Source of the DNA: Escherichia phage anhysbys
Sequence record: NC_052656.1
DNA: 64,000 nt
Reading direction: 5' to 3' (one strand)
Shown: piece by piece, positions 7,087 to 55,873 of the stretch
Layout: each line of letters opens with the position of its first letter
How positions within the stretch are numbered: the stretch's first letter is position 1
Made by a program: the position numbers and the translations under genes
The notes under the pieces: model-generated
The model's input: the letters and a program-made list of their open reading frames with translations, nothing else
Database searches by the model: none
What the model was told of the DNA's origin: nothing

Positions 7087-7443
7087 ATGAAAAAACTAAT
7101 CTTAGCCACATTGCTGGCTACCGTAAGCTTCACCACTTACGCTCAAAAATTTGTAGCAGTTAAAACGGATATTGGTAAAGATGTTGTGATCACAGGCAAC
7201 AAATTTTACTATACACCTGGAAATGGTGTTCTGGAAGAGTGCCAAGATGTTGAGGCATATACAGGAAAAGAAGATAACACGGAACGTCCTTTTTATTCGA
7301 TTATAGCTACTTGCAAAAATGAAATAGTAGCTATTAAACAATACAAAGATGCCCCTGGAGGAGAATACTTGTTAGTCAAGAATATTAAGAGTGAAAAAAC
7401 TGCAAAGTTTACAGTAATTATTTTAAAAGGAGAAACGTTCTAA
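7087..7443 (+). CDS. putative secreted protein
   Basis: Track frame; start refined to MKKLILATLLATVSFTTYAQ (signal peptide) after AGGAGGG. Confidence 0.6.
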   Translation: MKKLILATLLATVSFTTYAQKFVAVKTDIGKDVVITGNKFYYTPGNGVLEECQDVEAYTGKEDNTERPFYSIIATCKNEIVAIKQYKDAPGGEYLLVKNIKSEKTAKFTVIILKGETF

Positions 7444-8582
7444 TGAAATACACTATTTTTGGAGATGTAGCTGTTGTAAATAAGGAATATGGCGTTGAAG
7501 CTAATAAACTTCCTGCTGGAGTTTGGGTTGTCAACTGCGATCCGCACGGTAACTACTCTTTAGTGCGTGGCGAAAGTTTCTCTCTTCCGAACACTCTTTA
7601 TGGGGAAACTAAAGATCGCGCCGCACATGTTATTAAAACATTTGCTCGTCGTAGTAAAGAAGGTAAAAATACTGGGGTGTTACTGACAGGGACAAAGGGC
7701 AGTGGTAAGACGATGTTAGCTAAACTGATTAGCATGTCCCTAATGTCCACAGAAGGTTTAGGTATTCCAACCATTTTGGTGACACAGCCTTACACAGATG
7801 CTGGATTCTTAGAATTTATGAGTAAAATTACAGATCGTGCTGTTGTTTTATTTGACGAATTTGATAAAGTGTACGCTAAGAAAGAAGATCAGGAAGCACT
7901 GTTGACCTTGTTGGATGGAACAGGAAGTGGGAATAAACTTTACATCCTAACTAAAAATAGTGGTTATATCTCGGAATATTTTGTAAACCGTCCTAGTCGT
8001 ATCTATTATAGTTTCAATTACGATAAACTGTCTAGTGAAACTATGTTAGATTACTTGGATAAGAACTTGGTAAATAAAAAACACGTAGATAACTTCCAAC
8101 GTTTATGGGATGTTAGCACAGAGTTGTCTTTCGATGTTATTCAAGGTATTGTAGAAGAATTGAATTTCTATCCAAAAATGACTTTTAAAGAATGTCTTGA
8201 AATGATGGGTATTTCTTTAGGCAACGATGCTAAATGGAATGTGGCTTCTATCGTAGCTAATGGCAAAACCTTGAAGGTGAATTGGATCAATAACTGGCAC
8301 GACTTCACCCCTACTAAGTTTTTGTCGGGTGCTTGTTCCCTGAACATATATCTGCAAAGCTTGAAAGATGATGAAGTGGAAGCAATGGAAACCAACAGTT
8401 ATGTTATCCTGGATGAAGATGGTGATCCACATATTGATCTATGTGCAACTGCTGATGGTCTAACTTGTGATCTGATTGAAGGTGGTAAGATTCTGGTGAT
8501 GAGCACCACACCAGGAAACACTCTGCGAGTGGTACTGGAGCCTGTAACACAACGTTCCACCACACTGGGTAGCGTGTTCTAA
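7443..8582 (+). CDS. AAA+/P-loop ATPase
   Basis: Walker A GTKGSGKT, Walker B-like VVLFDEFDK; 379 aa. Confidence 0.7.
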   Translation: MKYTIFGDVAVVNKEYGVEANKLPAGVWVVNCDPHGNYSLVRGESFSLPNTLYGETKDRAAHVIKTFARRSKEGKNTGVLLTGTKGSGKTMLAKLISMSLMSTEGLGIPTILVTQPYTDAGFLEFMSKITDRAVVLFDEFDKVYAKKEDQEALLTLLDGTGSGNKLYILTKNSGYISEYFVNRPSRIYYSFNYDKLSSETMLDYLDKNLVNKKHVDNFQRLWDVSTELSFDVIQGIVEELNFYPKMTFKECLEMMGISLGNDAKWNVASIVANGKTLKVNWINNWHDFTPTKFLSGACSLNIYLQSLKDDEVEAMETNSYVILDEDGDPHIDLCATADGLTCDLIEGGKILVMSTTPGNTLRVVLEPVTQRSTTLGSVF

Positions 8583-8587
8583 TAAAG

Positions 8588-8612
8588 ATGCCCCACAAGG
8601 GGCATTTCTTAT
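8588..8612 (+). terminator. rho-independent terminator-like hairpin
   Basis: GATGCCCC-ACAA-GGGGCATT then TCTTAT, after ATPase gene. Confidence 0.5.
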
Positions 8613-8623
8613 AGGATGAAATC

Positions 8624-9832
8624 ATGAGTAAAGCTAAAAGTTGGGAAGAATATAAAGCAGAATGCGAGATCATAGCTCTCTCTAAAGGATATAAAATTTT
8701 AGGCCATAAAGAATGGAAAGGGTGTGAGACTAAACTCCTGATAGAATGTCCTGTGCACGGTGTATGGGATACTTGTAAAATAGCTAACTTTAAAAGTGGG
8801 AAGTCTTGCCCTTCTTGTGGTGAATTAACAAAAAGGGAGAAGAGAACGAAGAGCAGGGAGGACCAAGAGAAAGAGTGTGAAGAAGAAGCGTTAAAAAGAG
8901 GTTGGCGCTTCTTGGGTATCTACGGAGAATGGCTCAAAGCTAAAAAGACACGAGTAATCTTACGTTGTGACAGGGGTCACGAGTTTAACACATCTACCAT
9001 AGACAACTTTAAGAATAATAAACAAGGTTGTCCAGTTTGTCGTTTAGAGGATATAGGTAAACACCATAAGCTTTCAGACGATCAGCACATACAAGATTTC
9101 ATGCGTACGGGTGTGTTTCCCGAAGGCACTACCTTCACTAATACAGGGGAAAGAGCTGGGAGGAGCGAAATACTTTGGAGTGTATTTTGCCCTATCTGTG
9201 CTATAGATGAGTTTTCCAAAGCTGGGGTAGGAACGGGATATTTTATCGGTAGAGGTAGTTCATTAAAACAGGGTATGCGCCCTTGTCGTTGTTCTGCCAG
9301 TTACAAATATTCTGAAGAAGAGATGACATTTAGAGCAAAAAGTGACGTAGAACGTAGAGGGTACGTGTGGTTGGGGTGGATCGGGAAAGCTTCTATACTT
9401 GGGGATTTTGAATATGGTTGCAAGGATCATGGGAAACATGTGTGTAGTGCTAATAATTGGTTAAATAAGGGGTGTGGTTGCCCTGGTTGTGCAGGTATGA
9501 ATCAACAACAAGCCTACATTAATTATATTTACGATGAGCAAGATATTATCTGTGCACTGAAGTTTGGTATTGCTAATAATAGTGATCGCCGTATCAAAGA
9601 ACAAAATAGTCGTAATGTGTTTACTATGAAACAGAACCAAGTGTGGCACTTCCCTACTGTGAAGCAATGCAAAGATGCAGAGAAGCGTTGTAAACGTGTC
9701 CTTAACACGGAAGCGGTGAGCAAATATGCTATGCCAGATGGCTACACAGAAACAGTAGAGTTATCTTGCATGGCCTCAATACAAAACATTTATAAACTTT
9801 ATGGTGGAATATTACAGGAGGAAACATGTTAG
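8624..9832 (+). CDS. cysteine-rich zinc-ribbon repeat protein with C-terminal GIY-YIG-like segment
   Basis: Repeated C..HG...CP.CG / C.RGHEF...CPVCR modules; C-terminal YINYIYDEQD ... FGIANNSDRR resembles GIY / YIG+Arg motifs. Confidence 0.6.
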   Translation: MSKAKSWEEYKAECEIIALSKGYKILGHKEWKGCETKLLIECPVHGVWDTCKIANFKSGKSCPSCGELTKREKRTKSREDQEKECEEEALKRGWRFLGIYGEWLKAKKTRVILRCDRGHEFNTSTIDNFKNNKQGCPVCRLEDIGKHHKLSDDQHIQDFMRTGVFPEGTTFTNTGERAGRSEILWSVFCPICAIDEFSKAGVGTGYFIGRGSSLKQGMRPCRCSASYKYSEEEMTFRAKSDVERRGYVWLGWIGKASILGDFEYGCKDHGKHVCSANNWLNKGCGCPGCAGMNQQQAYINYIYDEQDIICALKFGIANNSDRRIKEQNSRNVFTMKQNQVWHFPTVKQCKDAEKRCKRVLNTEAVSKYAMPDGYTETVELSCMASIQNIYKLYGGILQEETC

Positions 9833-10191
9833 TTGACGTTCAAATTATGCGCAACGAAAGAATGGACTTCTTTGAAGCAGTAGAGAAACATCTGATTCGA
9901 TGGGACTATGAATTTGTTCCTGCTGGATGTGGACCAGTAGAGCATTTAGCGGAAGACGATGATGTATACATGATCATTCGTCAAGTGTACCAGACAGACC
10001 AGTGTGAAGAAACTCCTGAACTAATTTTGTTTGAGTGCAAAGATCTTGCAAAATATTTTGACTATGGCGGAAAAGAGGGTCATAATCTCTCCAGATACAA
10101 TAAACGTCTACTTATCTTAGACTACATGCGGAACAACAAACACAAACTCATCGACGCAGACGCAGTTTATGGCTACTGGTGGATGGATTAA
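9826..10191 (+). CDS. hypothetical protein
   Basis: ORF track 121 aa. Confidence 0.55.
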   Translation: MLVDVQIMRNERMDFFEAVEKHLIRWDYEFVPAGCGPVEHLAEDDDVYMIIRQVYQTDQCEETPELILFECKDLAKYFDYGGKEGHNLSRYNKRLLILDYMRNNKHKLIDADAVYGYWWMD

Positions 10192-10204
10192 CAAAGGAGA
10201 AACT

Positions 10205-10393
10205 ATGGCACGTTTAGCAGATAACCCTGTATTCTACCCCGTTCTTGATCTTTATGATGAATTGACATATGTTGTGGAGCGGTATAATTACAATGAAGAC
10301 CTCTTGGAGACAAACCTTAAAGTAGTTCTGATGAAAGCCTATCAGCAAGGGCAACGTGAAATTTTGGAGAGTATGAAAAATGCGAATAACTGA
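10205..10393 (+). CDS. hypothetical protein
   Basis: Track frame; start refined to MARLADNP after AAAGGAG. Confidence 0.5.
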   Translation: MARLADNPVFYPVLDLYDELTYVVERYNYNEDLLETNLKVVLMKAYQQGQREILESMKNANN

Positions 10394-10922
10394 TGAATAT
10401 GTATTCTTCTTTTCACATAAAGATGTGTTTAGTAATTGGTATATTGCACCCTTTACAGAAACCGAACCAGGTTACAATCAGACATTTAATTGTGTCGAAC
10501 AATACATGATGTGGCGTAAAGCTTTGCTTTTTAATGATCACAACACTGCACAGGCTATTCTGACTCATAGTTTGATACGGAAAGATGAGAAGATCCAAGC
10601 TTATTACAAACGTATGGGTAGGGCAGTGTCAGATTTTGATAACAACGTATGGGAAGAGAACCGTGAGCGTATTGTTATGCGAGGTTTATGCTTGAAATAT
10701 GTACAGAATCCAGATTTGTATGCAGACTTACACCTTTACCAATACAAAACGTTTGTTGAAGCAAGTCCTTACGATAAGGTTTACGGTATTGGAATGGGAA
10801 TGTATGAACCAGGGGTGCTAAATCCGGTCAACTGGAAAGGGCAAAATCTTTTAGGTAAATATCATAACAAACTGATCGAAATACTTTTCCCAGACAAAAT
10901 ACCGCAGAGACGATATTTGTGA
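10380..10922 (+). CDS. NADAR-domain (YbiA-like) protein
   Basis: FSN(W/F), CVEQYMMWRKA, MGR, Y(D/G)IGMG and LLGKYH.. blocks align with E. coli YbiA family from memory. Confidence 0.75.
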   Translation: MRITDEYVFFFSHKDVFSNWYIAPFTETEPGYNQTFNCVEQYMMWRKALLFNDHNTAQAILTHSLIRKDEKIQAYYKRMGRAVSDFDNNVWEENRERIVMRGLCLKYVQNPDLYADLHLYQYKTFVEASPYDKVYGIGMGMYEPGVLNPVNWKGQNLLGKYHNKLIEILFPDKIPQRRYL

Positions 10923-10976
10923 TATTTTAACTTTTTTCATTTTTAGAACAAAGGCGTCACTTTGTAGCACAGAAAT

Positions 10977-11012
10977 AAGGCTCCTACAGCACCGTAGAGA
11001 GCCTATTATTTT
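10977..11012 (+). terminator. rho-independent terminator
   Basis: AGGCTCCTAC...GTAGAGAGCCT stem then ATTATTTT, after NADAR gene. Confidence 0.55.
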
Positions 11013-11166
11013 GTCCTATACAAACCCTTGTCTTTTTCAGTTTGCATCACTAGGATTCGATCTGAGTGGGTTCCTGAAGGTCTGCCAATAAGATTAAAGG
11101 TTATCTCAAATTCCCATTACCTATTATCTCAAAAATCCCTCAAATTATTTAAACTTTTTAAGAATT

Positions 11167-11389: not shown

Positions 11390-11470
11390 CAAATGATAAT
11401 GATTCGCATTTAGGTTTATAAATGAGAATGATTCTTATTTAATAAAGTAAATGATAATCATTCTCATTTA
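11390..11470 (+). promoter_or_regulatory. three tandem Fur-box-like 21-bp palindromic sites
   Basis: AAATGATAATGATTCGCATTT / AAATGAGAATGATTCTTATTT / AAATGATAATCATTCTCATTT, about 30 bp apart. Confidence 0.5.
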
Positions 11471-11727
11471 GAGAATGACGCGCAGGGGCGGTGTTTGTCT
11501 CGCGCTCCCGTGTCCCCTCGCCATGTAATAAGAATAACAGATCCAACCAGGAAAGCAAGCGATTATTTTATCTTTACATTTCTTTACGAATATATAGCGC
11601 CCAGCCTACCGGCGATCAACCTTCCAACCAGTGCCCCTGGTATGTTAGCCCCGCCTTTACGCCGTGGGGTGGCGCTTCCTCTTCTGTATGTAAAACAGTA
11701 TAAGCCCTATCCCTGGGCTTGTCAAGA

Positions 11728-11994
11728 TTATTTTTTGTTTTCTTGCCAGGTCAGGACACCTAGCCAAAAATGAATATCACCTTTTCCCCAATGTGGTATA
11801 TTGCTTTCTTTCCCACCTTCACGCGCCCAGGTAAAACCGCCCGTGTAACTTTGTAATTGATAACTATCCTCGACCTTATAATCTGATAGGTTGAGAACGG
11901 TTTCAACCTTTAAGCCCGTTGCGCTTGCTACCTGGTGTACCGTGCCGCCTTGCCAGCCCAATGAGTGCATAAGGTGTAATGTAGTAGTTGTCAT
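11728..11994 (-). CDS. hypothetical protein in GC-rich island (doubtful)
   Basis: ORF track 88 aa; atypical GC-rich composition; isolated on minus strand. Confidence 0.25.
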   Translation of the reverse strand: MTTTTLHLMHSLGWQGGTVHQVASATGLKVETVLNLSDYKVEDSYQLQSYTGGFTWAREGGKESNIPHWGKGDIHFWLGVLTWQENKK

Positions 11995-21861: not shown

Positions 21862-21890
21862 AAGGGGCGCACCAAGCGCCCTTTCTTTTT
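21862..21890 (+). terminator. rho-independent terminator (same sequence as 16980 copy)
   Basis: AAGGGGCGC-ACCA-AGCGCCCTT + TCTTTTT at end of plus array. Confidence 0.7.
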
Positions 21891-22097
21891 GCCCGAACAA
21901 TGTTGATAGCTTTCGCCTATGAAAAACCGACACAGAACAAAATTGAATAAATCGCGGTATCGAGCTAATCAACCATTAAACGAATAACCATACCTCCCAG
22001 GGTAACAGGCTGTTAGAGAGCCATTTATAGCGGTTAAAATCGATCAACAACCAACAACAAACCATCAAAAACACCCTTTTACCTCCTTTCTAGTGCA

Positions 22098-22539
22098 ATG
22101 ATAACCATTATCATCTACCCATGATTATCTATGCAATATAAGCGCATAATTATAATGTTGATAATAGTTCGCAACAACTAACCAACAAACAACATAAAAC
22201 AAGAAGCAAACTAATCATAATCAAAGGAATAATAGCAAGATGATTGATAACGACAAACAATCAAACCATGATGAATACTAAGCAAGATAACGATAACACG
22301 ACAAAACAACCAACTAACGAACAATAACAAACGAAACCATTAAAATAATAACTATTGCCATAATAGTGACTGAATGAAATCATTACAAAACGAATCATTC
22401 CCAGGATCATCATTAGCACGCTATGCCGGACACATAGCGAGCTAATAATAAGCCAACTACACCCCAACAATCATAACCATCGGTGATGGTTATTTCTTGT
22501 TACTGCGTAGCTTGCAATAATTGCAAGCGTAATTACGCT
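22098..22539. repeat. cluster of perfect palindromes in ORF-free region
   Basis: ATGATAACCATTATCAT (22098), ATAACCATCGGTGATGGTTAT (22474), GCTTGCAATAATTGCAAGC (22510), AGCGTAATTACGCT (22526). Confidence 0.5.
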
Positions 22540-22732
22540 TACACTTATTGCGCTGGCTTATTATTAGCATTATATGTAATTACCAAGATCATAACATTAA
22601 CGCAATAACAATAATCATTGTAATGGTTACAATATGAAATCATTGGCAAGATGAATAATTGCACGTAGCAACATGAGCGAATAGCGACAGGTTGCATAGT
22701 GTGCACATAATAGAATAAAAGTCAATAATTTT

Positions 22733-22855
22733 GGGGGCGAAATGTTACCGCCACAGGCGGGAATGTTGAGCACTAAGAAAAGAGATAAACCTTAATCATG
22801 GGGGCGTAAATATCCGCAGGATTGCCAACGGCGATCCGGTAGGATGTTGAGCATC
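22733..22855 (+). repeat. two tandem related units beginning TGGGGGCG and ending GATGTTGAGCA
   Basis: Unit 1 ~22733-22775, unit 2 ~22799-22855; internal GC stems. Confidence 0.4.
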
Positions 22856-22923
22856 TTCTCTTAAACGTAAATAAAATCAGAAAATTCTTGATTTATTTTA
22901 GTTTTTATGTTAATAAACGTTTA

Positions 22924-22950
22924 AATAATAATCATTCTCATATGAATAAT
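22924..22950 (+). promoter_or_regulatory. Fur-box-like site
   Basis: AATAATAATCATTCTCATATGAATAAT. Confidence 0.4.
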
Positions 22951-23101
22951 AGTCTGCTTGTCATGAGCGGGATTAGTTGACATTGTTCCGTCATATGATG
23001 AGGTTGCCAACCTATTGATAAATAAGTGTTTGTGTGATTTATAATCAAGTGGCCCACCTTGTCGCTATGTTGGCATGAGCCTTGCATAAGTCATTGAATA
23101 C

Positions 23102-23130
23102 GAATGATAATTATTCTCATTCGCATGATA
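23102..23130 (+). promoter_or_regulatory. Fur-box-like site
   Basis: GAATGATAATTATTCTCATTCGCATGATA. Confidence 0.4.
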
Positions 23131-23462
23131 TTTGGGAATTGTCGCTGCGTGGACCTGACGGCCCGAAAATTCGCGTTAAGCACTTCTTACGTATGCGCCA
23201 TGATTTTTGCCATATGATATTGATTCTATTAGATATTCTTGCCATGATTGCCATGAAACAGGGTGTCCCGAAATAATCTCTCCCCGTAGATATTTTGGGT
23301 TACTTTTTATACAAGAGTGGGGTGTCAAAAATAATCGATATATATGGGATAATTGATAGGAATCCCCTATGGTAATTCGATTGTAATTGCCGAAGATTGA
23401 TCGTATGATGTTGGTGATTGATGATTGCCATGAAAGATGGCTAACGATGAGAGGAGATTGTC

Positions 23463-23807
23463 ATGCAAGAGAGTAAAAATGTTCCGTTAAGTAGTTTACG
23501 TCTAATGAAGTTTTACAAAGCTTGGCTTGCTGGTGAGGTAGAAGGTCACACAACGAGTGGTTTGTGCATATGTTTGATTAAGTATGTGGAGGGAACATAT
23601 CCTGATGAACTGTTACCTCGTCTACAACAAGAGATGAAATCCCAGTTTATTGGTGCAGGACTAGATTACAATTTTCCGTTTAATGAAGGTGGTTATGAGG
23701 AATACACCTTCGAACATAAAAAACATATTTGCCATAAAAACAAACATCGTATACAATGGGTGTTAGATAGAATTCAGGATTATGAAGGAGAGAAAAATGA
23801 CAAATAA
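23463..23807 (+). CDS. FY-WL/GLC/WVKDR family protein, paralog 1
   Basis: ORF track 114 aa; family motifs FYKAWL, SGLCICL, QFIGAGLDYNFPFN, RIQWVLDRI. Confidence 0.65.
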   Translation: MQESKNVPLSSLRLMKFYKAWLAGEVEGHTTSGLCICLIKYVEGTYPDELLPRLQQEMKSQFIGAGLDYNFPFNEGGYEEYTFEHKKHICHKNKHRIQWVLDRIQDYEGEKNDK

Positions 23808-41107: not shown

Positions 41108-41139
41108 AAGGCACCCACTTGGGTGCCTTTGTTTTATTC
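41108..41139. terminator. bidirectional terminator between convergent blocks
   Basis: AAAGGCACCCA-CTT-GGGTGCCTTT flanked by T-runs on both strands. Confidence 0.65.
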
Positions 41140-41406
41140 TTCGTTAGATTGCGTCTCAGACGCGTTAAATTCGGTTTCAGTACAACTTGCTAAGTAACTT
41201 ATATTTTGCATCACTACAACTACAGGTGTTTGAAGTTTATCTTCTAGCCCCGCAGCCACTTGAGCCAAGGCATTATCAATATTTGATTTCCTAACGCCTG
41301 TTCCATGTCCTGTTGCCAAGTAAAGATTACCTTCCCCTTTTTGTGTAGCATTGGCAAAGTAGTAAACGTAATGTGCAAGGTAGTAATCACGGATTTCTTC
41401 AGTCAT
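41134..41406 (-). CDS. hypothetical protein
   Basis: ORF track 90 aa; AGGAGAA RBS; last gene before bidirectional terminator. Confidence 0.55.
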   Translation of the reverse strand: MTEEIRDYYLAHYVYYFANATQKGEGNLYLATGHGTGVRKSNIDNALAQVAAGLEDKLQTPVVVVMQNISYLASCTETEFNASETQSNEE

Positions 41407-41449: not shown

Positions 41450-42265
41450 TTATTTGTTTAAGTGGTCTTCGACCATTTTAATGAAACCTTCATTGCTGAA
41501 GGCTGTTGCAGCTTTTTCTCGGTAAACAAAAACTCCACGATCTTCATAGAGAAGTGTTTCTTCGTAATTAACTCCAGGGTTAACTACAACCATTTTTGTA
41601 CCCATACTAAGTGCAGGAAATAATTCCCAATTAAAATTGATAATTTGGTTTGAACATCCTACTACTACAACCAAATCTTGCATGGTCAAAGTATCGAACA
41701 AGTGAGCCATATCTGCATACAAAGGTGCAGCCTCACCAAAAAATACAACATTAGGCTTCACCCAGTTATAATCATCTATGTTTATACTATTGTAACCAAT
41801 ATCTACCAGTGTTTTGTAATCTCCAGGATGCATACGGTAAACTACTTCAGGAAGATAGCCGTGTACGTGAATAACAGAATCTCTGTCTACACCTGCTCGC
41901 TCTAGTAGATCATCAACGTTTGTTGTCAAGTTTACTATTTGGTTAGGATATTCCTTAAACCACTTTGCTATTTGAATATGTGCAGCATTAGGTTGTACAT
42001 CTTTAAGCTCAACACGTCTTTTGTTATAAAATTCGTGTGTTTTGGCATACAAATCCATACCGTTCTCGTCTACACCACCGACCACTGGAAGATCTGGAGA
42101 TGTTCTAACACGATAACCTGCTTGGAAAGCTCCAATATCGCAGACCTCTTCTAAATCATATTCTTCCCATAAAGCACGACCACTATCTGTGTCTGTTCTA
42201 AATGTTCGAATCCCACTGTCTGCACTTAAACCTGCACCGCTTACAAAAATCACTCGTCTTGGCAT
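41450..42265 (-). CDS. SIR2-family NAD-dependent protein
   Basis: N-terminal VIFVSGAGLSADSGIRTFR resembles sirtuin GAG(I/L)S..GIP.FR NAD-binding motif; 271 aa. Confidence 0.7.
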   Translation of the reverse strand: MPRRVIFVSGAGLSADSGIRTFRTDTDSGRALWEEYDLEEVCDIGAFQAGYRVRTSPDLPVVGGVDENGMDLYAKTHEFYNKRRVELKDVQPNAAHIQIAKWFKEYPNQIVNLTTNVDDLLERAGVDRDSVIHVHGYLPEVVYRMHPGDYKTLVDIGYNSINIDDYNWVKPNVVFFGEAAPLYADMAHLFDTLTMQDLVVVVGCSNQIINFNWELFPALSMGTKMVVVNPGVNYEETLLYEDRGVFVYREKAATAFSNEGFIKMVEDHLNK

Positions 42266-55864: not shown

Positions 55865-55873
55865 TTTCTCTCC

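Follow-up and report, generated by a model that had tools for sequence, protein, structure and literature searches.

What does a NADAR-domain protein do for a lytic phage of Escherichia coli? The question is raised by a short gene in a 64-kb window of phage DNA (the whole stretch of 64,000 nucleotides that was analysed), whose product a preliminary description had read as a NADAR protein that might counter DarTG-like host defences.

The NADAR gene and its genomic setting

Around the gene, the DNA shares 99.3% identity with Escherichia phage SKA64 and 93-99% with a large number of phAPEC8-like phages (genus Phapecoctavirus, subfamily Stephanstirmvirinae). The window comes from a phAPEC8-like myophage of E. 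coli, a member of Phapecoctavirus. The features of the locus are as follows.

7443..8582, + strand: AAA-type ATPase gene (PF00004, E 8.7e-7; phrog_2376, E 4e-111)
8624..9832, + strand: endonuclease-like gene with three CapR homology domains (PF21817, E 3e-23, three matched stretches)
9826..10393, + strand: two small ORFs of 121 aa (phrog_24465) and 74 aa (phrog_22330), with no Pfam domain
10366..10371, + strand: Shine-Dalgarno-like GGAGAG, 8 nt 5' of the NADAR ATG, as read from the sequence
10380..10922, + strand: NADAR gene, 180 aa plus stop; orthologue of AdfN-Bas60
10978..11014, + strand: intrinsic-terminator-like hairpin AGGCTC...GAGCCT, then ATTATTTTGT, closing the rightward gene block

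The ORF at 10380-10922 (+) is present exactly as the preliminary description had placed it. Reading of the sequence gives ATG as its start codon, MRITD is the N-terminus in all NADAR orthologues compared, and the product shows 100% protein identity to its phAPEC8 homologue. The start of the gene shares 14 nt with the end of the upstream 74-aa ORF, an overlap that is compatible with translational coupling. The NADAR gene ends a rightward block of small genes of accessory type, most of them lacking annotation. The hairpin that closes this block has a folding energy of -21.8 kcal/mol (z -5.7), the phAPEC8 record carries an annotated terminator at the equivalent locus, and an ORF-poor gap of 1.35 kb lies 3' of it.

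The AAA+ ATPase and the GIY-YIG-like protein that had been pointed out nearby are both real and as described, the latter being the CapR-domain endonuclease, which has a sub-threshold match to MUG113/T5orf172 (GIY-YIG-type). Functional coupling of the NADAR gene to these two genes was considered and rejected: the adjacency occurs within Stephanstirmvirinae only and is absent in Seunavirus, where phages 4MG and EC152 carry a 42% identical NADAR among entirely different genes. In phi92-like phages the 121-aa and 74-aa ORFs are absent and the endonuclease gene abuts the NADAR gene. The endonuclease itself is 402 aa long in the window, 333 aa in EF1-1 and 467 aa in Bas60, and window positions 8584-9348, covering its N-terminal part, have no counterpart in the close relative EF1-1. 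With its length and N-terminus varying between relatives, the CapR/T5orf172 endonuclease is likely a variable homing-endonuclease insert. A Pfam search of the ORFs flanking the NADAR gene found no ART domain; the NADAR product is a stand-alone orphan without an adjoining cognate DarT or other ART. Three long contigs with distant NADAR homologues resemble jumbo phages rather than bacteria and are thus uninformative on any ancestral bacterial NADAR operon.

The gene is under purifying selection, with pairwise dN/dS values of 0.03-0.16 among orthologues from five Phapecoctavirus and three Justusliebigvirus phages. Megablast recovered it in 69 phage records (full-length in 68) and the neighbouring ATPase gene in 63. 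Since every Phapecoctavirus genome recovered by either search carries the NADAR gene, it is a core gene of the genus. Its DNA identity to these records is bimodal: 37 records match at 90% or more and 32 at 80-90%, and the two allele classes differ mainly in aa 28-94 (window 10461-10661), whereas identity of the ATPase gene is 95-99% throughout. Positive selection on this segment was rejected because dS rises along with dN, and dN/dS stays low (0.07-0.2 in comparisons with the window). This pattern points to a recombination mosaic of two allele lineages.

Fold and ADP-ribose site

Assignment of the product to the NADAR family, which had been proposed from four motif blocks, holds. All four blocks are present (FSNW at aa 17-20, EQYMMWRKA at 40-48, MGR at 79-81 and YGIGMG at 135-140). 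Pfam PF08719 (DUF1768) covers aa 11-161 of the protein with E 1.8e-35 and 123 bits against a cut-off of 35.1, and a Pfam search of its 180 residues found no domain besides NADAR. It also matches phrog_1017, a PHROG family lacking functional annotation (E 5e-52), and its sole solved relative in a single-sequence search is PDB 8BAU (E 4e-15). An AlphaFold2 model built from a 70-sequence alignment reached a mean pLDDT of 95.7. Foldseek matched this model to 8BAU (PnNADAR:ADP-ribose) with TM 0.78, E 1.8e-10 and 28% identity, and to E. coli YbiA (2B3W) with TM 0.69 and E 3.8e-7; beyond these two, the Foldseek search against the PDB returned nothing at E <= 0.001. The best structural match is therefore the NADAR of Phytophthora nicotianae (8BAU; Mol Cell 2023), a eukaryotic protein from which the phage protein differs by an insert at aa 63-71.

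Ten residues hold ADP-ribose in PnNADAR: E43, K50, K75, R79, Y84, W89, R93, E125, D130 and W133 (PMC11543638). We mapped them onto the phage protein through a HMMER alignment, accepting an offset of 2 in the chain numbering of 8BAU because all ten residues then agreed in identity. In the phage protein they correspond to E40, K47, K77, R81, F86, W91, R95, E127, D132 and Y135, so that all ten contacts are kept, eight as identical residues and two as aromatic swaps (F86 for Y and Y135 for W). Among 70 homologues E40, K47 and E127 never vary, and K77 and R81 hardly do. Three codons are of particular importance.

10497..10499, + strand: codon of E40, equivalent to PnNADAR E43, E. coli C7 NADAR E88 and AdfN-T4 E36; distal ribose contact
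10518..10520, + strand: codon of K47, equivalent to PnNADAR K50, E. coli C7 NADAR K95 and AdfN-T4 K43; essential
10758..10760, + strand: codon of E127, equivalent to PnNADAR E125; class-defining acidic residue

The equivalent of K47 makes a phosphate/adenine contact, and alanine mutants of AdfN-T4 at E36 and at K43 lose counter-defence. The class-defining position holds Glu in the phage protein, PnNADAR and YbiA, Asp in DarT1-linked NADARs and His in T4-type proteins. A family profile searched against the PDB matched 8BAU (1.5e-34) and YbiA (2e-17), and the DarG1 structure 8BAT was absent from its matches at E <= 1. Given Glu127 and a profile that matches 8BAU and YbiA but not 8BAT, the phage protein belongs to the general, PnNADAR-like NADAR family.

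Kinship with YbiA raises the possibility of a housekeeping N-glycosidase engaged in damage control of riboflavin intermediates. The phage protein passes the cut-off of NCBIfam TIGR02464 (riboflavin biosynthesis intermediates N-glycosidase domain; 112.3 bits against 73.7), it shares the fold of YbiA and the YbiA-type active-site residue Glu127, and public records label such proteins 'YbiA-like N-glycosidase' or 'GTP cyclohydrolase II'. However, identity to YbiA is 29% and confined to the C-terminal half, the family profile favours PnNADAR over YbiA, and AdfN-Bas60, a related phage NADAR considered below, lies outside the YbiA clade in the published LeRoux-lab phylogeny. Pfam finds the NADAR domain only, and the GTP cyclohydrolase II domain is absent. 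In the related phage EF1-1, the 64 kb that correspond to the window have no annotated riboflavin gene, and the NADAR locus shows neither fusion to or clustering with riboflavin genes (RibA/RibD) nor the E. coli rhlE-ybiA-dinG-ybiB neighbourhood. On this annotation a riboflavin context is absent, and a lytic phage would have no evident need for riboflavin damage control. We consider a YbiA-like housekeeping role very unlikely. The 'GTP cyclohydrolase II' label of several GenBank records is wrong, having been carried over from RibA-NADAR fusions, and a recurrent mis-annotation of public phage records is thereby corrected.

Two assignments to bacterial defence systems were also rejected. The protein matches PADLOC PDC-M42C (E 2e-35), but no component of PDC-M42 is found among its neighbours; and it scores 16.5 bits against a cut-off of 240 for the NCBIfam DS32_2 NADAR anti-phage protein, the gene lying in a lytic phage genome. 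Both matches are domain-level only.

Orthology to AdfN-Bas60 and the proposed counter-defence role

The chemistry of the family is established. NADARs hydrolyse ADP-ribose linked to guanine N2 and serve as antitoxins of DarT1 (Schuller et al. 2023, Mol Cell; PMC11543638). T4 gp30.3 (AdfN) is necessary and sufficient against DarTG1 (Johannesman et al., bioRxiv 2024; Nat Commun 2025, PMC11825919), and T4 adfN emerged as conditionally essential on DarTG1 hosts in an independent transposon screen. [quoted passage not shown] The evidence on AdfN-Bas60 comes from ectopic expression only. The same authors infer several independent acquisitions of NADARs by phages (PMC11825919).

We located the Bas60 NADAR as bas60_0111 (QXV83846.1) in MZ501100, the genome of phage PaulScherrer/Bas60. 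Bas60-62 are phi92-like phages, now placed in Justusliebigvirus, the sister genus of Phapecoctavirus within Stephanstirmvirinae. AdfN-Bas60 and the window protein are 59% identical over 172 aa (E 4e-69), with a 7-residue deletion in the N-terminal loop in their alignment; they have equal catalytic residues and the same stand-alone, orphan architecture. Their genes occupy the same genomic slot, in which an ATPase gene, an endonuclease gene and the NADAR gene are followed by a long ORF-poor gap, the window differing by the two additional small ORFs that separate its endonuclease and NADAR genes. The phages belong to different genera, and synonymous divergence between the two NADAR genes is saturated. 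The 59% identity, together with the shared slot, therefore identifies the window protein as the syntenic orthologue of a factor whose action against DarTG1 has been validated by experiment. The counter-defence role against DarTG-like systems that the preliminary description had proposed is, by this analogy, supported by phage NADARs of proven activity, the 59%-identical syntenic AdfN-Bas60 among them (PMC11825919).

By analogy with these proteins, the window protein probably strips guanine-linked ADP-ribose off phage DNA during infection and so defeats DarTG1. Under the mechanism that we propose, a stand-alone NADAR-family ADP-ribosylglycohydrolase would cleave the N-glycosidic bond between ADP-ribose and guanine N2 in phage DNA. 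The marks erased would be those that DarT1, the toxin of host DarTG1 systems, puts on the DNA, and with these gone replication of the phage DNA could go on. Such a protein would be an antitoxin mimic of the AdfN type, acting enzymatically and not by binding the toxin. Support for this reading is of two kinds: the fold, active site, selection, core status and orthology come from our analysis, and the anti-DarT1 activity comes from the literature on the orthologue. The anti-DarT interpretation of phage NADARs has already been published and is not new; since the mechanism and the phage-NADAR concept are both in print, the locus raises no fresh question. If correct, the proposal would carry counter-defence of the AdfN type into a second genus of E. 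coli phages in therapeutic use, and phAPEC8-like phages are predicted to have natural resistance to DarTG1.

The window protein can be set beside other members of the superfamily that act on DarT1 marks. AdfN-T4 (gp30.3) shares with it the superfamily, the E and K residues at a 7-residue spacing and the proposed job of removing guanine-linked ADP-ribose to counter DarTG1, but pairwise similarity is undetectable (BLASTP E 4.2) and T4 has His at the position of Glu127. DarG1 (E. coli C7; G. lovleyi 8BAT) shares fold and chemistry, and the phage protein would be its functional mimic. Unlike the window gene, which lacks a DarT neighbour, DarG1 has DarT1 as its operon partner; and DarT1-linked NADARs carry a catalytic Asp (C7 D171) and an N-terminal YbiA-fold extension, where the window protein has Glu127.

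Activity in vitro does not always translate into protection. [quoted passage not shown] Because some NADARs that are active in vitro fail against DarT1 in cells, in-cell specificity cannot be read from the fold. Three further points were counted against the DarTG1 reading, namely that the TIGR02464 cut-off is passed, that residue 127 is Glu of the YbiA/PnNADAR type and not Asp, and that 8BAT goes undetected by the family profile.

A rival reading is that the protein is a broader or different eraser, one that would act on cytidine-ADPr or RNA guanosine-ADPr made by ARTs other than DarT1, or on small immune signals derived from ADP-ribose. DarTG1 would then be one target among others, or even a secondary one. 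Among solved structures the nearest is PnNADAR (8BAU), of the general family; those members of this family that have been assayed take off G-ADPr as well as C-ADPr, on DNA and on RNA, a range that DarG1 and T4 NADAR lack (PMC12945103). The nearest metagenomic relatives lie in jumbo-phage-like contigs, one of which also carries NAMPT and phosphoribosyltransferase genes. Since general-family NADARs act on C-ADPr and RNA as well, the natural substrate range of the window protein may be wider than DarT1 marks. Yet the clade's sole experimental data, those for AdfN-Bas60, record anti-DarT1 activity and none against DarT2, and on balance we regard a broader or different eraser as unlikely. A wider form of this reading, that the Stephanstirmvirinae NADAR would be a broad-spectrum eraser directed against several ART-based defences, some of them undiscovered, besides DarTG1, is likewise unlikely. 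On such a view, the division of residues 28-94 into two sharply different allele classes might be an adaptation to the ARTs of different hosts.

A further candidate role lies within the phage itself. The window contains a Sir2-family gene (41450-42265), and the literature notes sirtuin or ART domains paired with Macro or NADAR domains in some phage toxin-antitoxin-like modules; the NADAR protein could thus be the partner of such a phage NAD-using enzyme, reversing or limiting ADP-ribosylation that the phage installs. However, about 30 kb separates the Sir2-family gene from the NADAR gene, the two are encoded on opposite strands, and NADAR homologues in other phages have unrelated neighbours. 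Such a partnership seems extremely improbable, and removal of DarT1 marks remains the preferred reading.

The downstream gap and other observations

The gap 3' of the NADAR gene contains further conserved features, which begin some 0.5 kb beyond the gene and are common to Stephanstirmvirinae and Vequintavirinae. A 19-bp palindrome, AATGAkAATnATTCTnATT, occurs there in three copies at 29-nt spacing (11392-11468), and two more copies (22924-22942 and 23103-23121) lie in a second ORF-poor gap; these five sites compare with 0.11 expected by chance. The pattern is very similar to the E. coli Fur box, GATAATGATAATCATTATC. The palindrome cluster is also found in Bas60, at the equivalent place (L004 3992-4103), and in the distant phage 4MG (L019 1450-1497), where one copy agrees with the Fur core at 16 of 16 positions. 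Between the NADAR terminator and the palindromes, the AT-rich segment 11141-11350 contains a 72-nt direct repeat in two copies that are 82% identical, plus shorter related repeats. The second gap (21875-23463, ~1.6 kb) corresponds to an unannotated 1.5-kb gap in EF1-1.

In the element directly after the palindromes (window 11478-11770), Phapecoctavirus and Justusliebigvirus share 91-100% identity despite the saturated dS of the NADAR gene alongside. Its core of ~125 nt (about 11571-11694) keeps 75-85% identity in Vequintavirinae of Klebsiella, Cronobacter, Pectobacterium, Proteus and Serratia (232 phage records). Within the element are two hairpins, a CU-rich tract and a TCTTTACA motif that occurs doubled. 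Indels in a hairpin loop are not multiples of three, and the element is therefore non-coding. RNAalifold detected weak covariation on both strands, and searches of the gap downstream of the NADAR gene found no tRNA, no Rfam family and no match in E. coli genomes. The element could be a Fur-regulated phage sRNA or else a DNA-level element. Given that in 4MG the palindromes and element form a module 48 kb from the NADAR gene, they are unrelated to the NADAR finding. An 88-aa ORF (phrog_19316; 11728-11994, - strand) lies directly after the element, and most of the distant phages that we compared likewise have a small opposite-strand ORF (60-88 aa) after it.

Elsewhere in the window, the Sir2-family protein encoded at 41450-42265 (-) is accompanied by a small Sir2-like ORF (41134-41406, -), the two being 99-100% identical to EF1-1 gp65 and gp64. 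At about 55869-55873, ~1.9 kb of EF1-1 is missing, comprising the genes for glucose-1-phosphate thymidylyltransferase and a nucleotide-sugar epimerase; the remaining genes of the dTDP-sugar cluster (nucleotide-sugar epimerase and dTDP-4-dehydrorhamnose 3,5-epimerase) are in the flanking region that aligns with EF1-1. Finally, the records matching window 9800-11100 include near-identical phages labelled 'Campylobacter', 'Pseudomonas' and 'Acinetobacter' (for example MG065650, 98.8%), which are probably host mislabels or contaminants among E. coli phage genomes.
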